Source: an uncultured Gammaproteobacteria bacterium
Lineage (GTDB): Bacteria; Patescibacteriota; Patescibacteriia; Patescibacteriales; UBA12465
Assembly (NCBI GenBank): GCA_964648205.1
Contig: CAZYNT010000010.1
Location: 1 to 24,000, forward strand
Direction: 5' to 3'
Length of the DNA: 24,000 bases
The position numbers were made by a program, and so were the translations under genes. Positions 2,701 through 17,385 of this stretch are shown here, in pieces. The notes beneath the pieces were generated by a model that was given only the letters and a program-made list of their open reading frames with translations, was not told the DNA's origin and did not search any database. The stretch's first letter is position 1. Each line of letters opens with the position of its first letter.

Positions 2701-3741
2701 CTAATTGATTTCAATATCTATAAAAACCGCTTCGGGCACCCGGGTGCGTATTCTTTTTTCAATTTCGTCTATTTTCTTGCCGACTAAACGCGGCACTCTA
2801 TCTATATAGTCCACCGAAAACTTCATAAAATTCTCATAACTCTCTTTAACCTCTTCATATTCATTTTCCAGGAAATGGTGCTGGTTCAGTTCTTTCATGA
2901 GGGCCGAGGCATTAAATTCCACGTCGCACTTGATCAAATATTTATCAACGTCCAGAATAGCCGATTTGAAATCAAGTACCTTCTCAATGGTCGGATCACT
3001 GTTAAATATCTCCAAAACGATTTTTTCGATGTCGGCCGGGATGGCCTTGGTAATCAAGTAGTTCCGATTTTTGGCAATAAGGACAATCGCCATGGCGCCC
3101 AAAAGCAACCCTATCAAGATGGAAGCACCGGCGTCCCAATAATATTGGCCGGTAATATAGGTCAGGACAATACTTATAAAGGCGATGATAATTCCCAAAA
3201 CCGCCAAACTATCTTCATATATTACGGCCAGGGTCGCCGGGTCGGCATTAGCTAAAGCCGAGCTTAACTTGGCTTTGGGCTGGCGGAGCAGATGGCCGCG
3301 CAATTCCCGAACCGCTATTAGAAGAGTGGCCGATTCGATTATAAAGGCGATGGCCAGGATAACAAGAGCCCAAGGATTGAAATGGATTGCTGTCTGATGC
3401 CAGAAGGAGGCAACGCCGTGATAGACGGTTGCGCCGCAGCCGACAAAAAAAATGCCGCAGGCGGAAATGAGCGCCCAGATGAAGCGTTCCTTGCCGTAGC
3501 CGTAATTGAATTCTTTGTCCGGTTTCTTAACCGATTGGCGGACGCCGATAACGAGCAGAAATTGATTGGCCGTGTCCGCCAGACTATGGATAGCTTCGGA
3601 AAACATGGCGCCGGAACCGGTAAAAGCAAAACCGACAAATTTGGCGGCGCAAACCACGGCATTGCCGCAAAAAGCGGCCAAAACTGGCCAGGAACCGGCC
3701 GGGCTGGCAGCATGGCTATGGATTGTTCTAGAAGTAGGCAT
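2701..3741 (-). CDS. Cation diffusion facilitator (CDF) family divalent-metal efflux transporter
   Basis: 346-aa ORF with about six hydrophobic helices. It has the CDF-type metal-site motif FSEAIHSLADTANQ in an early TM helix, plus a C-terminal cytoplasmic domain. The GC-rich TM-encoding 5' half explains the overlapping spurious ORFs in other frames. Confidence 0.85.
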   Translation of the reverse strand: MPTSRTIHSHAASPAGSWPVLAAFCGNAVVCAAKFVGFAFTGSGAMFSEAIHSLADTANQFLLVIGVRQSVKKPDKEFNYGYGKERFIWALISACGIFFVGCGATVYHGVASFWHQTAIHFNPWALVILAIAFIIESATLLIAVRELRGHLLRQPKAKLSSALANADPATLAVIYEDSLAVLGIIIAFISIVLTYITGQYYWDAGASILIGLLLGAMAIVLIAKNRNYLITKAIPADIEKIVLEIFNSDPTIEKVLDFKSAILDVDKYLIKCDVEFNASALMKELNQHHFLENEYEEVKESYENFMKFSVDYIDRVPRLVGKKIDEIEKRIRTRVPEAVFIDIEIN

Positions 3742-3796
3742 ATTATAATAGAATATTATATTAATAGGATATTATATAAAAAGAGGGATGTAAATA

Positions 3797-3930
3797 AAAC
3801 CCCGCCAATAATCTGTAGAGCGCGGCCGGACGTTTTCGGCGTCCGGCGGACGAGAAGCCAATCCTTATTTAGGAGAGAGTTTTTAAATAAGAACCTTACT
3901 TCTCCGCTCTACAGGTTACTAGCGGGGTTT
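3797..3930 (-). ncRNA. Structured three-way-junction RNA element of unknown class (candidate cis-leader/attenuator of the CDF gene, or a small RNA)
   Basis: Nested helices read directly: 3797-3805/3922-3930 (9 bp), 3813-3822/3905-3914 (10 bp), side hairpin 3825-3832/3840-3847 (8 bp), 3852-3857/3899-3904 (6 bp), and apical 3864-3871/3884-3891 (8 bp, 12-nt loop). Internal loop 3858-3863/3892-3898 pairs only in minus-sense RNA (U.G, A-U, G.U, U.G). The minus-sense closing helix is followed by UUUUAUUU. The element lies ~55 nt upstream of the CDF ATG. Strand assignment is tentative. Confidence 0.45.
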
Positions 3931-9236: not shown

Positions 9237-10289
9237 CTACCTGGTGAATCCAGGCACAGAAACTATCTGGCCGTTCTCGCGGATGACCGCGGGGTGGCCA
9301 GTTGCCGGCGCGACCACGTCGGGACGGGCGCCGCCCAAGGCAGTCAGCAACATTCCGCTGACCACCAAAAACTTACCCGGTTGCGGCGCTGGCAGCCCGG
9401 TGACTTCACCGAACTTCTGTTCGGTGATGCCGTCGCCGTCGAAATCGGCAAACGACGCGGCCACGCGGGGAGCAGGGGCGGCGGGAATAAGGACCCGCCC
9501 ATCGTTAAGCCGCAGCATGTGCGGCGTCAGATTGACAAATTTTTCACCCAATGCGAACCGGGTGAAAAATTCTGCCTCAGTCTGGTTAGGGTAACCGCCC
9601 CAGTAGGCGGAGCCACCCGACTTGCCGAGACCGGAACCGCCGTTCCAGCCTTCGAACTTTTCTTTAAGGACAGCGCACAATTGTCCGTCCCCATAAAAAT
9701 TCACCTCCCCGTCGCCGGAGAGGACCAGGAGCTGGTCGTACTGACCGAATAAACGGTCAGTGACGGTTGCTGACTTGCTGTGCGAAAGGCGCACGATCGT
9801 CAGGCGACCGACGATTTCGCGACTGGCAATCGCGATTTCAGCGGCCGCTTCCTGCTCGGACGTAATACCCTGAGCGGAACGGTCGGCCAAGCGAACCTCA
9901 GCTACTTCCTCGGGCGTGACGTCCATTGCCATCATCGCCGGAATGTAGCCGCTGTCGTTGGCGGCGATGAGCTGCTGATAGCGGTTCGGCTCCAGGCCGA
10001 GCAGGTTCAACACCTGCAGGATGGAGGCCGGTTCCGCGGCTCGGTCGCCATGATGGTCGACCAGAATGACTCCTTCCGGCAGGTCGATGTCCTTGGTCAG
10101 CTCGACCAGAACCGGGACCTTGCCTGCGCTTGCCGCTTCAGCAATTTCAGTGGCATAGGCGGAGGCCGCGGCGCCCCAGCCCAAGTTATTATTTCTGACT
10201 TCGGCGCCGGTCACTGCCAGCACCTGAGCGATTTCGGTCATCTCGGCATCGCGTCCGCCGAGGAAAAATACAAAATTTTTCTTATTCAT
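9237..10289 (-). CDS. Hypothetical protein, strongly GC-enriched (350 aa from the preferred start)
   Basis: Track ORF 9237..10358. I prefer the ATG at 10289 (MNKKNFVFFLGGRDAEM), but the start is ambiguous. Hand counts of 60-nt lines give ~62-65% GC against ~32-42% in the right-hand genes. Three long spurious ORFs overlap it in other frames, as expected for stop-poor GC-rich DNA. Motifs seen are LVDHHG and DFDGDG. Confidence 0.6.
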   Translation of the reverse strand: MNKKNFVFFLGGRDAEMTEIAQVLAVTGAEVRNNNLGWGAAASAYATEIAEAASAGKVPVLVELTKDIDLPEGVILVDHHGDRAAEPASILQVLNLLGLEPNRYQQLIAANDSGYIPAMMAMDVTPEEVAEVRLADRSAQGITSEQEAAAEIAIASREIVGRLTIVRLSHSKSATVTDRLFGQYDQLLVLSGDGEVNFYGDGQLCAVLKEKFEGWNGGSGLGKSGGSAYWGGYPNQTEAEFFTRFALGEKFVNLTPHMLRLNDGRVLIPAAPAPRVAASFADFDGDGITEQKFGEVTGLPAPQPGKFLVVSGMLLTALGGARPDVVAPATGHPAVIRENGQIVSVPGFTR

Positions 10290-10418
10290 TTTTATTGCCG
10301 CTCTTAACGGCTTTTGTTTCCTCCGAAGTGACATTACCCGGATTATCCTGAGGCTCATCTTTTAAAATGAAACACAAAATAATCCGAACAATAGGCTTAA
10401 GTTAAAAATGAAAACAAA

Positions 10419-10646: not shown

Positions 10647-10883
10647 TCAAAGCGAGAAATCTTCGTAGAAGATTTCTACCTTTTTACCTTCTCTGATAAA
10701 GAGGGTGCCGCCATAAGAACTCCAACCATTCCCTTGGCGCACCTCTTCGTGACCAATGTCGATTTTAACAACATTGGTCACAACCTTACCCTTAAGAGTA
10801 AGGTTGAAGGTGATTGAACTAATCCAGCTCTCGATCGCCAGGCTAGAGGCGTCGAGGCCGAAGTTTTTTGCTAAACTAGCCAT
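10647..10883 (-). CDS. Small hypothetical protein (78 aa)
   Basis: ORF with ATG at 10883 preceded by GAGG about 9 nt upstream. The sequence looks beta-rich and I recognise no family. Confidence 0.5.
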   Translation of the reverse strand: MASLAKNFGLDASSLAIESWISSITFNLTLKGKVVTNVVKIDIGHEEVRQGNGWSSYGGTLFIREGKKVEIFYEDFSL

Positions 10884-10888
10884 AACTT

Positions 10889-10935
10889 AAGCCTCAAGGA
10901 TGCTGCGTTCATAAATCGCTTCATCTTTAAGGCCT
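10889..10935 (-). promoter_or_regulatory. 5'-UTR hairpin sequestering the Shine-Dalgarno of the 78-aa gene
   Basis: Minus-sense AGGCCUUAA (10927-10935) pairs with UUGAGGCUU (10889-10897) over 9 bp, including two G.U pairs that are mismatches on the plus strand. The 29-nt spacer has inner GAUG/CAUC and GCG/CGC pairs. The 3' arm contains the GAGG Shine-Dalgarno and ends 5 nt before the AUG. Confidence 0.5.
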
Positions 10936-10989
10936 ATATATATCTAATTTAACTAATTTTTTAAACTAATTAATTTCGATTATTAAATT

Positions 10990-11633
10990 TTTAAAGTCCT
11001 TTCCCCTCCCGATACTCAGGTCCTGATCTATTTCGAGGAAATTTCCGGGCCCCAAACTTGTTCAAGGTTTGAGACTTCGGCCGATCTCCTCGTAAGAGAC
11101 GGTCGCGATAGCCGCTGTTCACTGATCCTTTTCTCCTTGCGGAAATACGGACACAAATTACTAGGATCGCCTGCGCCTTCGGATACGGTTTGCGACGTAC
11201 CCTCCGGATCGGCTCGACTAAACGCTGATTCTAACTGTTTAAGTTAGAAGCAAACGATAGGCGTTTTGCTAATCTCGGGACATGGACTCTCTCCCGGCTC
11301 ATTTTTTGAACCAATGGCTGTCCATTTCAATCTCCTAAAATCGGCAGTAAACGCTATTATTTTTATAATGTACTAAGAAATAATTTAACCGTTATTTCTT
11401 CGGCTGAGCTTGCGCTCCTTATCCGCAGGGCGGATAGTGATGAAGAGGAGCTACCGACAGTCTTGATAGGAATCTGTTAAAGCGGCATGGGTGATCACTT
11501 TAAACTTCATATTCGATTTTCCTGATAACTGTCATTTTTTATAGAACCGCAAATAAGTTTATTATGACTTTTTCGCAGTATCTAACTCTCTCCACTTCAT
11601 TACTATTCGTCTTGCTTTAGCGCCATTGGCACC
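10990..11633 (-). ncRNA. Structured non-coding region of unknown class (one or more RNAs; boundaries and strand tentative)
   Basis: No ORF of 60 aa or more. There are many GC-rich local helices in an AT-rich context. Examples are 11420-11436 (UAUCCGC/GCGGAUA) nested in 11414-11419/11446-11451, 11375-11400 (9-bp stem), 11232-11248 (TTCTAACT/AGTTAGAA) nested in AAACGC/GCGTTT, and 11276-11296 (CGGGA/UCCCG). Confidence 0.3.
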
Positions 11634-11658
11634 AAAAAAACTCTTCCGAGGAAAGAGT
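11634..11658 (-). terminator. Rho-independent terminator (minus strand)
   Basis: Minus sense reads ACUCUUU-CCUCG-GAAGAGU, a 7-bp stem including one U.G pair, followed directly by UUUUUUU (plus-strand a-run at 11634-11640). Confidence 0.6.
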
Positions 11659-12027
11659 TGTTATTATGATTAGGCGCGATAACAATTAAATGTAAATATT
11701 TGGCCGCTTAATCTAATGGCTCTCTCCTTCCATTAATTAATTTATTTTATTGTAATGTTCTGTCTCGCTAGGCCGAATTTTATCGGCGTCTTATCGGAGA
11801 CTGGGTCTTCCTCATCTTTCTTGATGAGAAGTGGCCGCTCGCCGCTAAGGCGTTTCCTGTCTATACCCTTCGAATTGGACCGACACCATGCTCTCTCCGT
11901 CATAATGTCCGCCACTCTAATTCAGCTAAGTATAGAATCAAGAAGTGTTTGACTTTCTATTGAATGTTTTATTGAATGAACTTTTGGATATTTCCGAATT
12001 TCTCTTTGGCCTTCTCTCACTTTCGAT
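11634..12027 (-). ncRNA. Candidate ~390-nt ncRNA bounded by a promoter and a terminator, with GGAGAGAG-loop hairpins
   Basis: The region lies between the minus-strand promoter (12034-12062) and the terminator (11634-11658), with no credible ORF. Hairpin 11884-11907 is CAUUAUG-ACGGAGAGAG-CAUGGUG, with two U.G pairs valid only on the minus strand. Hairpin 11714-11735 is UAAUGG-AAGGAGAGAG-CCAUUA. Other helices include CUUCUCAUC/GAUGAGGAAG and GCCGA/UCGGC, and AGUGGC/GCCACU encloses a domain. Confidence 0.4.
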
Positions 12028-12033
12028 ACTGAC

Positions 12034-12062
12034 AGTTTAGCACCCTTTGACAACTTTGTCAA
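12034..12062 (-). promoter_or_regulatory. Candidate sigma70-type promoter facing the non-coding region, embedded in the palindrome TTGACAA-CT-TTGTCAA
   Basis: On the minus strand: -35 TTGACA (12057-12062), a 17-nt spacer, then -10 TAAACT (12034-12039). The palindrome at 12047-12062 also yields a plus-strand TTGACA. Confidence 0.4.
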
Positions 12063-12158
12063 TACTAATTAATACATTTCTCAGTAATTGTTAGTAAAAT
12101 ACAAGACAGCACTGCATAAAATATGCGTATTTATTTATTAATTTTGTCATTATTAAAA

Positions 12159-12187
12159 TTGACACTTATCTTTTGTTTTGCTATAAT
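12159..12187 (+). promoter_or_regulatory. Consensus sigma70-type promoter for the TrmB-like gene
   Basis: TTGACA (12159-12164), an exactly 17-nt spacer, then TATAAT (12182-12187), about 88 nt upstream of the ATG at 12275. Confidence 0.6.
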
Positions 12188-12274
12188 AGAGATATAAATA
12201 AGGAATCTGCTTAACGACTAATAAAATAAAAACTTATTTTTGTAAAGTTATCCACAACCCATATTTACAAATAT

Positions 12275-13126
12275 ATGAACGAAAAAATACTTTTAGGCCT
12301 TGGCCTAACTAAAGTCCAGGCCGAAATTCTAACCTGCCTTTTGCAAAACGGCCCCCAAAAAGCCAGCAACATCGCCAACATAACAAAAAGACCTCGAGGC
12401 GTTGCCTATAAGGGTCTTGAAGAATTGATTGATTTAGACTTGGCTATAAAAAAAGAGAGCAAGCTTGGCGTGGCTTTATTTACAGCCGAACACCCTTCTA
12501 ACCTGGAAAAAGTTCTTGAGCGGCGCGAAAAGGAACTGGATAAAACCAAGAAAGAATTCGCCGCTTCCCTGCCGGATCTGGTTTCCGCCTATAACCTGGT
12601 CAGCAATAAGCCGGGAGTCAGATTCTACGAAGGCGAGGAGGGGATTAAAAAAGTTTTGGAAGATACCTTGCTCAGTAACCCCGACAAAAAGCTTTATACT
12701 TTTTCCGATGTGGCTAGCTATGCGACTTATCTTAGCGATTGGAACACAAGCTACTATGCTCCACAAAGAAAAAAGCTCGGCGTTTTTGAGAAAGTTATTA
12801 TCCCCGATAACGCTCGAGCCCTGGAATATATGAAAGATTATAAGTCTAATGAAGTAACGGATATTTTATTTATTGACCATAAAGCCTACCCTTTCGCGAC
12901 TGAAATAAATATTTATAACAACAAAGTTTCTTTCGTGACCTTCGCTCCCGATTTTATGGTCGGCGTAATCGTTGAAAATAAAGAAATATATAAAACCTTG
13001 CTTTCTATTTTTAATTTCATGTGGCAATTCTGCAAACAAAATTTACAAAATTCCCAACCCGCTTGGCTAAAAAGACAAACCACCCCGTCATTACCGGCTG
13101 CCGGCTCAAGCGACCAGTCAGTTTAA
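12275..13126 (+). CDS. TrmB-family winged-helix transcriptional regulator
   Basis: The N-terminus LGLTKVQAEILTCLLQNGPQKASNIANITKRPRGVAYKGLEELIDLDLA matches the TrmB-type HTH pattern. A ~200-aa C-terminal domain follows. The stop codon overlaps the stop of the convergent giant gene. Confidence 0.65.
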   Translation: MNEKILLGLGLTKVQAEILTCLLQNGPQKASNIANITKRPRGVAYKGLEELIDLDLAIKKESKLGVALFTAEHPSNLEKVLERREKELDKTKKEFAASLPDLVSAYNLVSNKPGVRFYEGEEGIKKVLEDTLLSNPDKKLYTFSDVASYATYLSDWNTSYYAPQRKKLGVFEKVIIPDNARALEYMKDYKSNEVTDILFIDHKAYPFATEINIYNNKVSFVTFAPDFMVGVIVENKEIYKTLLSIFNFMWQFCKQNLQNSQPAWLKRQTTPSLPAAGSSDQSV

Positions 13127-16100
13127 TTAAGTTCCGTCGGCTTAACGATATATCTCTGGATGAAACGTAAAATCTCTAGCAAACTGGTTGCTTCTTTAGC
13201 CTCGCTTAAAAGCTCTTCTCGACTCTTATCTATTTTTTCAAAATATCCGGCGGGCGCTTTTTCTAGGTTAGCGAAATAATGTTTTAAAATCGGACGAACG
13301 ACGCTCTCGGCGTATTTTAATTGCTTCTTATTATCCAGCGTTAAAATCTTGCCGCCGATCAAGCCTTCGCCGGCAGCCACTACCTGGTCGCTATTAACCA
13401 AAAGATCAGAGTCATTCTTATAAAAATAGGTGCTATAAGGCTCTTTAAATTTAACAACGCTTTCTTTTTCTTCAAAATCGCCGCGGAAGCCAAAACTGGC
13501 CGAACCGACTTCCGGACAAACAAAATTCAATGATAAAGAGTCTTTCTTAATTGTCTTATCCAGGCCGGCTTTAGAGTCGGTTTTTATTTTTCCTAAATGG
13601 TCTTGCAAACGCTGGAAATAAGCAAGAGACGGAGAACCCTTAGCTAATTTTGATTTTTTTTCATTAATGGAATCACGAATAAGTTTGCAAATGGTATTCA
13701 ATAGTACTTTAGCTTCCGGACTTTCGGGATTATCTAAAACCTCAAATCCTTTTTCTTTGCCAACCTGTTCAAAATTACGGATCACCGACCCTAAAATATC
13801 ATAACGAGCTTCATTAAGATGGCCGATCTTTGTTCCGTTAGTAGACAAAATCCAGGCCAATTCTTCAAGCGCATAGCCGATATATTCTTCCTTTTCCGCC
13901 CCCGAGACAGATTCTTGGACCATAGCGAAGAAGGCTTCTTTAAAAACCGGACTCTCTTTCAAATTTTTAACAATGCCGTTATAACGTTCATAATCTTTTT
14001 GGTTGCCGCTTAAAAATTCTTGGTATCTTTGAACTTTAATATTATCTAAACCAAAAGTATCAATAATTTTTTCATATTGCCTAGCCTCGCAATCGCCAAT
14101 TTCTCCTGCTTTCTGGCGAGCCGCGCTTTCGCTTTTGCCATAACGAACCTGATAATTATTAACCTGGATTTCATCGCAAATAACTAAATTAACTTTCCGG
14201 CCCTGATTATTAAGCCAAAACAAATAGCCGTATATATCAATCGGCTTGGCCGCTTTTTTTTCATTTTCAAAAACCGCTTCCCAGGATGGCAAATCCTTGG
14301 AAATGCCAACCGGAAAATATAAAGGAGCTTGGTCGGGAATATTTTCCGGCTTAACCTCGTTATTTTCAAAATTACTGAAACCATTTGGCAATTTAGTTTC
14401 TTCCTGCCCGTAAATCAGCTGATCCATTTTATTCTCCAAAGCGATTTGCAGGGGGAGGGCTTGCTGTAATTTTTTAATAGCCTCTTCATAAAGAGCCTGC
14501 TCCTCGGAAATCGGCCCGCTCAAAACATCGTGGTATTTTTTTATTTTTTCCGACCAGGCAGATGCTTCCGTTTCTCCGTCGGCCGACCCTTCTTCTTTTT
14601 TTAATTCCGCCAAAACCTGCCGGATGGCTTCCGGGCGGCAGCTTTCGACTTCCGCCATCGTTCGATAATATTCAATCATTTCTTTTATCCGCTCCGCGCT
14701 AAACTTTTTATGCTGTTCAAAGTCCCGGCGAATCAGCGTCTGAGTCGCTTCATCAAAATCCTTGATCATTTGGGGAAAATTTTGATCATCGGCAATTTCG
14801 GCGGCGTCGTCATAAGGCGAAGCAAGCCCTTCCAAAACATCAATGCCGAGCTGACGATAAACTTCGTTAAGTTTTTTGGCCATTTCTCCAAATTCCGCCA
14901 AATTCTCTTGGCTTCTAAGCAACTCCTCATTAAAGCTTGAGACCAATTTATCAATATCAACTGCGCTGGTCGCCGGATCGTTAACTTTAATATTAGCTTC
15001 GGTTAACAAATTACTGGCTCGGGAAAGACTGGCTCGTACGAACCTTTTCGTATCAATATTTTTATCGAAAAATATTTCCTGGTACATCCGTGAAACATCC
15101 TGAGTCTCGCTAGAATCATTAATTTCTGCCACCTTGGAAAGCAGCTGATTAATTTGTTCGGGCTTTAATTTTTTTCCTAAATTAATAATAGCTTCGCCGA
15201 TGCCATAGTCAATATTCAGGCATAAGAATGATTTTATCCGGTTGATTTTATCTTCTTCTGTTTTCGCCTCATTTATAAAGGCGGCGATTTCTCTTACTCT
15301 CTCTTCATTATTTTCACTCAAAAACCTTAATAAATATATCTGGTAGCGGAAAGGGATTTCTTTCAGATCAATGCCTACTTGGTCGTTGATATAGGCTTCC
15401 ATATCAGGGCGATGCATGTGCTTTAAAAATAGAGAAATTTCTTCAGTCTCTTTATCATTTATATAATCGGCCATTTGGCTGTCTTTAGACAGCGAATTAT
15501 AGTCGTAAAAATTAATTTCCAGCGCGTCATTTTTCAAATTTCTACCCAGTGTTTGTAATTTATTGGCTAGCCCCTTGGCAACTTCTGCAAAATTGGCATT
15601 AATCAACGAGCGCTCCCGCTCATAATTTTCAAGCAATTTCGCGTGCCGGCTGCCGGCGCTTTCATATAGCTCCGCCGTTAGCTTCTCGGCGGCCACAAAA
15701 TTATTGTGATGTTCTTTTTTCAAACCCTCATAACCTAACCATAATTGGCCACAGACGTCTTTTCCGTTAAACAACTTTTCCGGCTGGTTATTTTTTTTAT
15801 CAAAAGACTTCAGAAGATTAAGGCCGCTGACAAAATCAACTACCGCCGAATAAGCTTTTTCCGAATTACCTTGTCTATAGCCTGAAACAAATTTTTCCCA
15901 TATCGACTGAAGGTTGGCATTATGTTCAGCTTCTAAAATTTTTGAGGCGGCCGTGTTGAAGTAATCTAAAAAATTATCAGTCGCCTGCAAATTTTGATTC
16001 TTGGCCTTAGCATTTATGTTTGCTCTTTTTATCCGCAAATCGTCTTTCAGTTGGTCAATCTTGTCCTGATTACTAAAAAATTCCAGCCAACTTTCCCGGG

Positions 16101-17313
16101 ATATGCCGGAATCCAGTTGCGACCAAAGATCCGCTAATTTGTTCCTATCTCGACTGTCAATCTCATAGTAGGGCGAGAAAATCCGATCGTTTACCGCGGA
16201 AATTAAATTCTCAACGTTGATTTTTTTGTTATGGGAAAAAACATTTTCAATCTTTTTTAAATCAACTAGGGATATTTTCGCGGGCCGCTCTTTCTTTTGG
16301 TTATATTCATCCGCTGAAAACGGACCATAACTTACGGGGGTATTACTATGATCTATCACGGCCATAGCATCAGCCGCCACTCTCACTAACTTATCGCCGG
16401 GTTGAATCGGAATATTAGAATAAACTATCTTTTCTAATCTGTCCGATTCTTCTTTTTCAGCCAAAGATAAACTTTCGTTAAGGCGCAAATTACCCTTATC
16501 ATCAGAATATTTGACGATGCCCAGGCTAGGATCGACTTCTTCCTTGTCGAGCTGCCTCTCAGTCAAATTTATGGCGTAACGTAAAAATGCCGAGTTGGTG
16601 CCCGTTTTCATGCTCTGCAATAACAGGCGGAGATTATCCAGCCCTCTTTCAGATGTTCCTGTCCCAGCTGCGTCGGCCGATAATAATTTAATTAAATGGA
16701 TTTCGTCAAATTGCTCGGCAAATGATTTCTTTTTAAAGGTTTCTAAAAATCTGGTAAAATTTTCCTGCCCATATTCCCATGATAAGCTATAAACCAAATC
16801 ATCAACCATGCAGCTGCCGATTTGCCCATAAATTTCCGCCGATCGCGTCGCTTTGGCGGCCAGGCCGAACTTATCTTCTATATCAAGATTAGAACTTAAG
16901 CATGGACTGGAACTAAAATAAATATCTTTAATGACTTTTAAAAACTGGTTAAAATTAGGCTCCTTTTGATTTTCTTCACAAAATTTTAATAATTCGCTAA
17001 TCGTTATTTTATTAGCTTCCCTGATTCGTCCGGCATATTCTTCGTTCGGATTAAATTTTTTGTCCGCCTTGGAAAAATATGAATTAATCTTATCTTCTAA
17101 TTCATAATACTTCCGATAATCATCCACCGGCGCTTGTTCATTATTTTTTAAATAATTATTAAAAAAATCATGGGCTAGCGCTTGCAGCTCATTTTTTTGC
17201 TCCGGGTTCAAAAGACTGTTTTCATCATCTGGTATTTTTGTTTCCCGACTCTTTTGGCTGTTTGGAGCCGTTTTAAAATTATTAAAATCTAAACCCTTTG
17301 TTTCCCTAAACAT
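13123..17313 (-). CDS. Very large hypothetical protein (~1,396 aa), mostly helical, no recognised domain
   Basis: Uninterrupted ORF 13123..17334. The track start is a TTG; the first in-frame ATG is at 17313 (MFRETKG), with GGGGAGAG 13 nt upstream, so the start is uncertain. The gene is AT-rich (~32-37% GC in sampled lines). Confidence 0.7.
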   Translation of the reverse strand: MFRETKGLDFNNFKTAPNSQKSRETKIPDDENSLLNPEQKNELQALAHDFFNNYLKNNEQAPVDDYRKYYELEDKINSYFSKADKKFNPNEEYAGRIREANKITISELLKFCEENQKEPNFNQFLKVIKDIYFSSSPCLSSNLDIEDKFGLAAKATRSAEIYGQIGSCMVDDLVYSLSWEYGQENFTRFLETFKKKSFAEQFDEIHLIKLLSADAAGTGTSERGLDNLRLLLQSMKTGTNSAFLRYAINLTERQLDKEEVDPSLGIVKYSDDKGNLRLNESLSLAEKEESDRLEKIVYSNIPIQPGDKLVRVAADAMAVIDHSNTPVSYGPFSADEYNQKKERPAKISLVDLKKIENVFSHNKKINVENLISAVNDRIFSPYYEIDSRDRNKLADLWSQLDSGISRESWLEFFSNQDKIDQLKDDLRIKRANINAKAKNQNLQATDNFLDYFNTAASKILEAEHNANLQSIWEKFVSGYRQGNSEKAYSAVVDFVSGLNLLKSFDKKNNQPEKLFNGKDVCGQLWLGYEGLKKEHHNNFVAAEKLTAELYESAGSRHAKLLENYERERSLINANFAEVAKGLANKLQTLGRNLKNDALEINFYDYNSLSKDSQMADYINDKETEEISLFLKHMHRPDMEAYINDQVGIDLKEIPFRYQIYLLRFLSENNEERVREIAAFINEAKTEEDKINRIKSFLCLNIDYGIGEAIINLGKKLKPEQINQLLSKVAEINDSSETQDVSRMYQEIFFDKNIDTKRFVRASLSRASNLLTEANIKVNDPATSAVDIDKLVSSFNEELLRSQENLAEFGEMAKKLNEVYRQLGIDVLEGLASPYDDAAEIADDQNFPQMIKDFDEATQTLIRRDFEQHKKFSAERIKEMIEYYRTMAEVESCRPEAIRQVLAELKKEEGSADGETEASAWSEKIKKYHDVLSGPISEEQALYEEAIKKLQQALPLQIALENKMDQLIYGQEETKLPNGFSNFENNEVKPENIPDQAPLYFPVGISKDLPSWEAVFENEKKAAKPIDIYGYLFWLNNQGRKVNLVICDEIQVNNYQVRYGKSESAARQKAGEIGDCEARQYEKIIDTFGLDNIKVQRYQEFLSGNQKDYERYNGIVKNLKESPVFKEAFFAMVQESVSGAEKEEYIGYALEELAWILSTNGTKIGHLNEARYDILGSVIRNFEQVGKEKGFEVLDNPESPEAKVLLNTICKLIRDSINEKKSKLAKGSPSLAYFQRLQDHLGKIKTDSKAGLDKTIKKDSLSLNFVCPEVGSASFGFRGDFEEKESVVKFKEPYSTYFYKNDSDLLVNSDQVVAAGEGLIGGKILTLDNKKQLKYAESVVRPILKHYFANLEKAPAGYFEKIDKSREELLSEAKEATSLLEILRFIQRYIVKPTELN

Positions 17314-17385
17314 AACATTAAATTCTCTCCCCAAAATTAATTAATCCCTTATTTTAAATACTTTTTTATCTAAATTTTATCTAAA

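Follow-up and report, generated by a model that had tools for sequence, protein, structure and literature searches.

Results

A gene-free interval beside a TrmB-family gene

The window analysed here (the whole stretch of 24,000 nucleotides (nt) from contig CAZYNT010000010.1) is part of the chromosome of one of the Patescibacteria (also called the candidate phyla radiation, CPR), whose closest named relative is a Candidatus Falkowbacteria metagenome-assembled genome (MAG). Its overall GC content is 44%. We describe a gene-free interval of this window, situated between a short open reading frame (ORF) and a gene for a TrmB-family DNA-binding regulator, and the long structured RNA encoded there on the minus strand (Table 1). 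An ORF scan of the interval found a single ORF of at least 60 amino acids (aa), at 11755-11952 (65 aa), which is not kept as an ORF among homologous loci, and 25-38 stop codons in each of the six frames. A first-pass annotation of the window, made by a model from the letters alone, had described the interval as containing no plausible gene, and these counts bear it out. A protein-coding gene or pseudogene was ruled out by the density of stop codons, by indels of arbitrary length inside hairpins, by compensatory changes of base pairs, and by the lack of frame-preserving conservation in homologues. For the 78-aa ORF to the left of the interval, neither a homologue among the fetched loci nor a match to any family was found. 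Should it turn out not to be a gene, as may be so, the noncoding part would reach ~10359.

Table 1. Coordinates of the interval, the RNA and its parts, and the divergent regulator gene, in window positions
Feature	Position	Strand	Elements	Evidence
Gene-free interval	10884-12274, 1391 nt		between 78-aa ORF (10647-10883, minus) and TrmB-family gene (12275-13126, plus)	
Full-length candidate RNA	~12027 to ~10988, ~1.04 kb	minus		conservation profile, promoter-to-hairpin distance, covariation
RNA promoter	12034-12062	minus	-35 TTGACA 12062-12057; 17-nt spacer; extended -10 TGCTAAACT 12042-12034	
5′ leader	12009-12027	minus	UAUCGAAAGUGAGAGAAGG, including degenerate purine motif GUGAGAGAAG	alignments; kept in L041
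Loop module B	11884-11907	minus	CAUUAUG-AC-GGAGAGAG-CAUGGUG; motif 11898-11891	model R2, 31.9 bits
Long hairpin between modules B and C	11790-11849	minus	UUAGCGGCGAG...CUCCGAUAAG	RNAalifold on 11 homologues, covarying pairs
Loop module C	11713-11736	minus	UUAAUGG-AA-GGAGAGAG-CCAUUAG; motif 11727-11720	model R2, 33.1 bits
Internal terminator/attenuator candidate	11632-11659	minus	stem 11659-11639, AACUCUUUCC-UCG-GGAAGAGUU, then U7	terminator scan
Helix D, 5′ strand	11586-11610	minus	includes third GGAGAGAG (11593-11586)	pairs with 11433-11451 in RNAalifold consensus, both orientations
Helix D, 3′ strand	11433-11451	minus	GCUCCUCUUCAUCACUAUC	block conserved in alignments
Core domain 1	11271-11342	minus	helices H0 (11342-11337/11276-11271), H0b, H1 (11325-11320/11287-11282)	alignment A2 and pair counts
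Core domain 2	11169-11255	minus	candidate pseudoknot; hairpin H2a (11249-11229); hairpin H2b (11202-11181) with loop UCGCAAAC	
3′ hairpin domain	11024-11110	minus	Pa 11092-11086/11040-11034, internal loop AUCGG/GAAAU, Pb, Pc, apical loop CUUGAACAA (11066-11058)	
3′ tail	10988-11023	minus	conserved, purine-rich (…GGGAGGGGAAAGGACUUUAAA); conservation ends and variable DNA starts	alignments and conservation profile
Regulator-gene promoter	12145-12187	plus	TTGACA 12159-12164, TATAAT 12182-12187	12/12 consensus matches; invariant in alignment
TrmB-family (TrmBL2-like) DNA-binding regulator gene	12275-13126	plus	constant divergent partner of the RNA	Pfam TrmB; AlphaFold model

Conservation of the interval

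Homologues of the TrmB-like protein were used to fetch at least 140 loci from metagenomes and GTDB genomes. The contig itself was found, identical, in one public assembly. An ORF-poor gap of 1.0-1.45 kb precedes the TrmB-like gene in nearly all close relatives. At four loci (L095, L097, L024 and L027) the DNA of the RNA gene is 74-86% identical to that of the window, while the TrmB protein is just 54-58% identical. A conservation profile showed the interval to be conserved overall from ~11025 to 12260, with coverage at 11025-11340, in patches up to 11930, and again at 12005-12274; the two halves of the RNA appear as separate conserved BLAST blocks. With nhmmer the core of the RNA was found in 40 loci. 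A model of the 3′ hairpin (R1) matched 31 distinct loci, in which identity of the TrmB protein falls as low as 35%, and the matches always lay upstream of the TrmB gene on the opposite strand. The collection of homologues that had been proposed as a check thus yielded 31 distinct relatives carrying a homologous RNA. Genes to the left of the RNA vary from genome to genome.

Promoter, strand and extent of the RNA

The first-pass annotation had placed a minus-strand -35/-10 pair at 12057-12062 and 12034-12039. A consensus scan recovered the same promoter, which has the -10 hexamer TAAACT (12039-12034) with a TG extension and matches the consensus at 10 of 12 positions plus the TG. The hexamers and the TG-extended -10 are near-invariant across a 21-sequence alignment, and the stretch just downstream (GUAUCGAAAGUGAGA...) is likewise almost unchanging. 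A promoter of the form TTGACA-N16-18-TAnnnT was found on the same strand in all 31 loci with the 3′ hairpin, one per locus, with the exception of L044, which has a second, weaker candidate. The form for the family, TTGACA-17-TGnTAnnnT, was also seen in more distant loci. The promoter lies 1039 nt from the end of the 3′ hairpin in the window and 244-1281 nt from it across the 31 homologues, and the predicted RNA lengths across the family run from about 210 to about 1250 nt. The presence of this promoter in every one of the 31 loci, the compensatory changes of the terminator described below and the identity across the interval place its signals beyond chance.

The strand was assigned from several kinds of evidence. 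Fold-energy z-scores were -3.9 and -3.7 for the minus strand and -2.3 and -5.9 for the plus strand; as folds beat shuffled sequences on both strands, fold energies alone leave the strand undecided. On hand-curated helices, 173 G·U pairs were counted in the minus sense versus 51 in the plus sense, with ratios of 21:0 in helix H1 and 26:1 in helix Pa, and the 5′ region gave 51 versus 5. The conserved promoter, the side on which the terminator has its U-run and the G·U counts therefore indicate an RNA on the minus strand. A plus-strand RNA had been considered because some loops resemble GNRA (GUAA) and a few G·U pairs exist in the plus sense; the same three observations outweighed this.

Two thirds of this RNA lie beyond the unit first proposed for it. 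The ~390-nt promoter-to-terminator transcript of the first-pass annotation makes up only the 5′ third of the conserved RNA, since the core and the 3′ hairpin are found at 11024-11342. The ~640 nt to its left (10990-11633), for which no clear boundaries had been given, proved to be the most conserved part of one minus-strand gene of ~1.04 kb. In the window, a consensus scan found no promoter-like site between the internal terminator and helix D, and in homologues of the L003 type the terminator directly abuts helix D. Three homologues (L041, L042 and L102) lack the equivalent of 11400-12010 and keep promoter, leader and core, L041 being a minimal form of 480 nt; in L041 and L043 the leader is joined to the core with little or nothing between. 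There being no room for a promoter between terminator and helix D, and the leader of L041 being joined straight to the core, we conclude that the two parts belong to one transcript.

Conserved structure and covariation

With the full MAFFT alignment as input, RNAalifold found few helices, and those proposed by a naive column-pair finder were spurious; the helices analysed here were curated by hand. Alignment A2 covers the core with 23 sequences (11350 to 11015); pairing holds in 89.6% of its cells, and 38 of the 65 pairs change on both sides. None of 500 shuffles matched the observed values, and sliding the pairing partners dropped pairing to at most 53% for the core, and to no more than 54% in either the core or the 3′ hairpin. 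The helices of core domain 1, among which H1 is 100% paired in A2, enclose a variable hairpin and the fourth copy (11294-11287) of the purine octamer GGAGAGAG described in the next section. Both-side changes were seen at 7 of the 8 pairs of H2a and at 6 of the 7 pairs of H2b in core domain 2. We infer a pseudoknot between GUUUGC (11255-11250) and GCAAAC (11193-11188, within the hairpin loop) only from complementarity, because both strands are almost invariant.

Model R1 scores 94.5 bits on the 3′ hairpin of the window, and its set includes sequences whose TrmB protein is only 35-51% identical. In this hairpin 94.8% of cells are paired, 16 of the 19 pairs change on both sides, and none of 500 shuffles scored as high. 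The 5′ third, folded with RNAalifold from 11 homologues, has 33 consensus pairs, 16 of them with two or more Watson-Crick types. Taken with the 7 of 7 pairs of the module stem given below and the shuffle controls, covariation is strong, and the suggestion that the interval encodes a structured noncoding RNA in the minus sense is upheld by promoter, terminator U-run, G·U counts and covariation alike.

Repeated loop modules

The sequence CTCTCTCC occurs four times on the plus strand of the window (at 11287, 11586, 11720 and 11891), each time inside the interval; a variant is present at 12014 and no further copy was found on that strand. The RNA strand reads GGAGAGAG, which is located on the 3′ side of a hairpin loop in the typical order stem-AA-GGAGAGAG-stem. 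Two of the four motifs of the window lie in 10-nt loops of simple hairpins, modules B and C, that were detected by R2, a 24-nt model of the module hairpin. In a search of 682 kb R2 gave 45 matches, all upstream of a TrmB-like gene and on the RNA strand. The stem of the module is 93.4% paired versus 52% in shuffles, with covariation at 7 of 7 pairs, and on four of five measures none of 500 shuffles reached the observed value. The hairpin at 11884-11907 (module B) had been cited for G·U pairs favouring the minus sense; it does contain two U·G pairs possible in that sense only, and its stem covaries. Most homologues have the module C hairpin on a different stem, for example GCGG/CCGC or AUUAAUGA/UCAUUAAU. 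The looser motif GGAGAGRG is found in 83 sense and 6 antisense copies in the 31 RNAs (24.4 kb), at 0-5 per RNA.

TrmB loci without an R1 match (L040, L071, L101, L039, L063 and others) have the same promoter followed by 3-7 such hairpins on unrelated stems, so that hairpins presenting the (AA)GGAGAGAG loop number 0-7 per RNA across the wider family. As judged from these alignments and models, what defines the wider family is the promoter, the loop motif and TrmB as partner; within it, the window falls in a subfamily with the core and 3′ hairpin in common. The RNA has the anatomy of the CsrB/Rsm type, with multiple GGA motifs in hairpin loops.

Two other explanations of the repeated motif were rejected. 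Shine-Dalgarno-like sequences are absent upstream of all 16 predicted gene starts in the window, where the upstream regions are AT-rich, and the AGGAG/GGAGAG motifs on the RNA stand out the more for it. A Shine-Dalgarno decoy is a weak proposal, because the genes of the window lack such sequences and, by our own reasoning, the GGAGAGAG loop pairs with only six canonical anti-Shine-Dalgarno bases. A CRISPR or TIGR-type array, suggested by a literature match, was rejected since the interval contains no tandem repeats and only short two-copy direct repeats. The sequences between loop modules are conserved across genomes, unlike the variable spacers of guide-RNA arrays, and the genes of the window include no recognised cas or tas gene.

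The internal terminator and complementary sites

The stem and U7 tract that had been reported at 11634-11658 were recovered by the terminator scan at 11659-11632, and the terminator recurs in homologues with compensatory changes. It had been taken for the end of the gene; it looks instead like an internal attenuator. The GGAGAGAG loop has its complement in the 5′ arm of this terminator, CUCUUUCC, and the form of this site in the family is (A)CUCUYUCC. A hairpin followed by U5-7 was found 130-410 nt from the start in 13 of the 31 RNAs, using a terminator filter that had been relaxed after a stricter version returned almost nothing. Twelve RNAs carry, 36-89 nt past a module, a CUCUYUCC site with no more than one mismatch to CUCUCUCC (the loop's exact complement), and have a U-run 9-25 nt beyond that site. 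The minimum-free-energy fold of 11745-11628 consists of a long-range helix between GGAGAGAG of module C and CUCUUUCC, and not of the module hairpin and the terminator. The parts of an attenuator with alternative pairing (a terminator, its U-run and an upstream pairing sequence) are therefore all present, and suggest such a function.

The same arrangement was found in phages. Exact CUCUCUCC in a terminator loop 38-47 nt downstream of a module occurs at six intergenic sites, in two unrelated sequence contexts. The first (L148, 9465-9560, minus) lies between two early genes of a phage-like contig that encodes Erf, Gam and a primase/helicase; here a terminator with the 10-nt loop UACUCUCUCC comes 38 nt after a module hairpin. 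In the second, represented by L186 (3030-3134, minus) and its relatives L189, L197, L205 and L208, a different module hairpin is followed 46-47 nt on by a terminator with loop AAACUCUCUCC and U8; this unit sits between two early genes on the five related contigs. The viral scan for a shared 14-mer gave at least 120 matches, mostly chance, the informative ones being the subset with full stem and complement. Among 81 viral sites sharing the 14-mer, the exact complement was found within 155 nt downstream in 6 and upstream in none.

A single exact CUCUCUCC was found in the window outside the RNA interval, in a loop at 3872-3879. It is part of a very stable element (3794-3930, minus; -72.5 kcal/mol, z = -9.6) upstream of a cation-efflux gene (2701-3741). 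The outer stem of this element, CCCCGC/GCGGGG, precedes a U-run, and its inner hairpin carries the 12-nt loop AAAACUCUCUCC; no Rfam family matches the element. It could be a target acted on in trans or a chance occurrence.

Comparison with catalogued RNA families

Covariance models of Rfam 15 gave no match at gathering score over the whole window, and none in the RNA regions of seven homologous loci; a permissive search of 10700-12400 returned only four chance-level matches (E 4-10, 12-23 bits). No tRNA or tmRNA was detected by ARAGORN. The models for OLE, ROOL, GOLLD, HEARO, raiA, CsrB/CsrC/Rsm and group I and II introns gave no match. The first-pass annotation had noted no resemblance to RNase P, tmRNA, SRP, 6S or riboswitches, had seen no sequence evidence for membership of OLE, GOLLD or ROOL, and had proposed a search with all Rfam models across the interval; that search, together with ARAGORN, agreed with it throughout. 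A resemblance to RNase P (GAGGAAAUUUCCGGGC versus GAGGAAAGUCCGGGC) was not supported by the covariance model.

The annotation had also likened the RNA, by size and context, to the large noncoding RNAs of mobile elements and prophages. This was only partly right. In the collections searched the whole RNA has no phage or plasmid homologue (blastn of the 1041-nt RNA gave no match among 50,697 records of phages and 72,556 of plasmids), and its constant neighbour is a chromosomal TrmB-like gene. The short hairpin-terminator unit, on the other hand, does occur in phages, and exact-pattern scans of IMG/VR returned only chance matches or this isolated unit. A literature search found no description of the RNA. 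By all these searches it is an undescribed family of the Patescibacteria that matches no catalogued RNA family.

The divergent regulator gene and other neighbours

The TrmB-like protein consists of a winged-helix domain, a coiled coil and a C-terminal domain, and its AlphaFold model (pLDDT 85) matches the archaeal TrmBL2 structure 5bpd over the full length (E 1e-12). A palindrome TGTCA-N10-TGACA (12145-12164) overlaps the -35 element of the regulator gene and is conserved in all aligned relatives. More TGTCA/TGACA half-sites lie at 12047-12062, around the RNA promoter. The palindrome and these half-sites are candidate operators.

The 5′ untranslated region of the TrmB-like gene contains a near-invariant 17-mer, TTTGTAAAGTTATCCACA (12240-12258), which holds a perfect DnaA box, TTATCCACA (12248-12256). 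Its role may be that of an operator, a DnaA site or a translation element, all of which are candidates. An origin of replication, prompted by this perfect and conserved box, was rejected for want of a cluster of boxes: allowing up to one mismatch, there are 2 in the interval and 5 in the whole window versus 6.7 expected by chance. Neither dnaA nor dnaN is among the genes of the window, and no GC-skew switch was found in it.

Convergent with the TrmB-like gene and overlapping its 3′ end is a gene for a 1403-aa protein (13123-17334, minus). This protein has no Pfam domain and no relative in the Protein Data Bank (PDB); for residues 1036-1149 a weak match below threshold, to tRNA-dependent cyclodipeptide synthase, was obtained. 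Homologues of 1159-1403 aa occupy the same position at 41 loci and are absent from several RNA-bearing loci.

Genes downstream of the RNA on the same strand vary, and the first of them differs by locus. The families that recur, at variable distance, are an NrN-like protein (12 of 28 loci) and a 133-aa protein (9 of 28). NrN is an enzyme that degrades SAM-AMP (PMC10600005). In the window the NrN-like gene (9237-10358, minus) encodes 373 aa, of which residues 27-226 match the NrN DHH phosphodiesterase (PDB 9lq9, E 7e-31); a C-terminal domain of ~100 aa also stands alone as a 108-aa protein in relatives. The gene has a GC content of 59% versus 44% for the window, and was therefore probably acquired. 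Apart from the NrN-like domain, searches of the neighbouring proteins against Pfam, NCBIfam and PDB gave no functional link.

A protein of ~400-440 aa with an N-terminal P-loop and a weak Csx3-like segment was seen at L003 (1420-2739), L006 (2401-3552) and L041 (~412 aa), in the last case about 1363 nt downstream of the 3′ hairpin of the RNA. Downstream of the RNA it recurs in company with the 133-aa and 108-aa proteins, and its gene adjoins MoxR-type AAA genes in L003 and L006, with a VWA-domain gene too in L006. L041, a Parcubacteria relative, also carries a match to a type III hammerhead (2058-2112, minus; 40.6 bits against a gathering score of 48.5, E 1.4e-5) in the variable gene cluster downstream of the RNA.

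Discussion

The results establish an RNA gene on the minus strand, its structure and its modules, the co-occurrence of the loop motif and its complement, and the divergent pairing with a TrmBL2-like gene. On balance we regard it as probable that this RNA of ~1.04 kb represents an undescribed Patescibacteria family that works by loop-terminator attenuation and in trans. For pairing and attenuation as such, which we read from complementarity and predicted folds, the chances come close to even without exceeding it. The most likely function is that of a regulatory RNA with multivalent loops, pairing with RNA (or binding protein), and with an internal attenuator.

The RNA consists of a 5′ leader, a variable count of (AA)GGAGAGAG hairpins, a core with the candidate pseudoknot and a 3′ hairpin, with a terminator ~390 nt from the start. 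According to this proposal the GGAGAGAG loops would be pairing elements, and an upstream loop, by pairing with the terminator arm, would compete with formation of the terminator. The attenuator site would in this way set the ratio of short (~390 nt) to long (~1 kb) RNA. Surplus loops of the long RNA might then act in trans on CUCUCUCC terminators or loops, for example that of the 3794-3930 element or the attenuators of phage operons. Alternatively or additionally, a factor that binds the loops may tip the balance at the terminator. The divergent TrmB-like protein probably controls both promoters.

Several points weigh against this proposal. The complement site is missing in 19 of the 31 RNAs, so that attenuation cannot be the function of the family as a whole. 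The fold of 11745-11628 is not better than that of shuffled sequences (z = -0.9). The two hairpins of the phage units are each stable, with complementarity confined to their loops, so that the interaction there would be a kissing complex and not strand displacement. The CUCUCUCC hairpin at 3872-3879 could be due to chance, since an 8-mer is expected ~0.7 times per window. The invariant 8-nt purine loop looks equally like a protein-binding site. Minus-sense A·C mismatches were read in the sequences of a few helices, namely the Pc hairpin of L011, L017 and L047, and helix D; the strand bias of these is opposite to that of the other helices, which we record without explanation. The start of transcription, the 3′ end and the isoforms of the RNA are placed by inference from the DNA, and no clear terminator was found after the 3′ hairpin. 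Finally, all loci were collected through the TrmB gene, and the linkage of RNA and TrmB was checked from the TrmB side only.

A stronger version of the proposal, which we hold to be unlikely though worth stating, would dispense with protein at the loops altogether. A highly expressed modular RNA, gated by the TrmBL2-like regulator, would act through its GGAGAGAG loops in trans on CUCUCUCC terminators, both in host leaders and in early operons of phages. Such a network might set termination genome-wide or interfere with phage gene expression, with the length of the RNA itself tuned by its internal copy of the switch.

The main rival, which we consider unlikely, is a protein sponge or scaffold. 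The (AA)GGAGAGAG loops would bind a protein of the CsrA type (GGA in loops) or the Hfq type (AG repeats) and titrate it as do CsrB and RsmZ, and the complement-bearing terminator would be a side feature or a feedback element. The anatomy fits this equally well: one to seven identical loops per RNA are displayed, with their GGA, on covarying stems, their number shifts by gain and loss of modules, the promoter is strong, and 19 of the 31 RNAs have modules without a complement site. The gene moreover adjoins genes of glycogen metabolism (GH57, glycogen synthase), and csrA has been reported among the highly expressed genes of ultra-small prokaryotes in groundwater (PMC9938205). Against it, no CsrA or Hfq gene was found in the window or the fetched loci, the CsrB, CsrC and Rsm covariance models found no match, and recognition by CsrA leaves the invariance of the five bases after GGA unexplained. 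Above all, the exact 8-nt complement that recurs beside modules in RNAs and phages is left unexplained by a sponge and points to pairing between RNAs.

Division of the interval into two RNAs appears very improbable. An sRNA of ~390 nt (12027 to 11632) would be followed by a separate RNA (about 11610 to 10988) with a promoter of its own that escaped recognition. The canonical stem and U7 at 11659-11632, conserved in 13 of the 31 homologues, and the conservation of the two halves as separate BLAST blocks are what such a division would produce. It is contradicted by the 18 of 31 homologues without such a terminator, by the single promoter upstream of the 3′ hairpin at each locus (L044 excepted), by the want of a promoter-like site between terminator and helix D in the window and the abutment of the two in L003-type homologues, and by the leader tied to the core in L041 and L043.

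We give at least as little credence to a cis-acting leader, that is, a long 5′ untranslated region, processive antiterminator or riboswitch for the variable genes on its left, among them the 78-aa ORF and the NrN-like phosphodiesterase. The want of a clear terminator after the 3′ hairpin would suit such a leader, as would the co-oriented genes that begin 4-160 nt past the hairpin in several loci and the pool of downstream families that the loci share (NrN-like and 133-aa proteins). A riboswitch or leader would be expected to have a constant downstream gene family; the first downstream gene instead varies by locus, and even the most frequent families reach only 12 and 9 of 28 loci. The NrN-like gene was probably acquired, as its GC content indicates, the RNA is far more conserved than anything downstream, and nearly all genes of the region are on the minus strand anyway.

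A self-assembling ornate RNA, several molecules of which would be joined into a particle by complementary GGAGAGAG and CUCUCUCC elements as in the homo-oligomeric structures reported for ROOL, GOLLD and OLE (PMC12286853), would accord with the large size, the many conserved helices and the pseudoknot, but is extremely unlikely given a six-fold size range (about 210-1250 nt) and varying module number, unlike a fixed architecture, the lack of any sequence or structure match to those three families, and the absence of the complement site from most members.

By analogy, the RNA would seem to work most like the multivalent loops of CsrB/Rsm combined with terminator control by antisense or kissing loops. 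With CsrB, CsrC and RsmX-Y-Z it shares the plan of a noncoding RNA of many hairpins that present the same short GGA purine motif in their loops, in a copy number that varies by species. It differs in that its motif is an invariant 8-mer, in being up to four times longer, in its conserved pseudoknotted core and 3′ domain, in the exact loop complement of its cis terminator, and in its occurrence in the Patescibacteria without a covariance-model match.

Attenuation controlled by antisense RNA is known from the countertranscripts of pT181 and pAMβ1, and the c4 antisense RNA of P1 and P7 (Rfam RF01695) lies upstream of its own target in the same operon. In these systems, as may be the case in the L148 and L186 units and in module C with its terminator, formation of a downstream terminator or block is governed by a hairpin loop together with its complement, located on one transcript or acting in trans. 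There is no homology between them and the new RNA, the activating loop is repeated many times on a chromosomal RNA of ~1 kb, and the interaction is known here only as complementarity and an alternative fold in silico.

Divergent pairs of regulator and small RNA are represented by SgrR-SgrS, GcvA-GcvB and OxyR-OxyS, whose RNAs of 100-230 nt depend on Hfq and pair with mRNAs. Here, too, an RNA gene and a transcription-factor gene diverge from a shared, conserved control region. The new RNA, at ~1 kb, is far longer than these Hfq-dependent RNAs, and its control by the TrmB-like protein is a candidate relationship. OLE, ROOL, GOLLD, raiA and HEARO are likewise large RNAs with many covarying helices and a pseudoknot that were found by comparative genomics. 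The new RNA differs from them in its modular build, its variable length and its fixed TrmB-like partner gene, and in that no homologue of the whole RNA was found in the phage and plasmid collections searched; the likeness to OLE, ROOL and GOLLD is one of size and ornateness only.

The CPR/Patescibacteria make up a large share of bacterial diversity, and their tiny genomes have shed nearly everything dispensable. To our knowledge almost no regulatory RNAs have been characterised in them. That an RNA of ~1 kb is better conserved than neighbouring proteins, in genomes that drop dispensable DNA, argues that it does something important. The invariant 8-nt loop on covarying stems, matched by its exact complement in terminators both of this RNA and of phages, gives a testable handle on what that is, and the short attenuator unit can now be recognised and searched for in phage genomes. 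The RNA would also join the few large noncoding RNAs known from bacteria as a family of its own.

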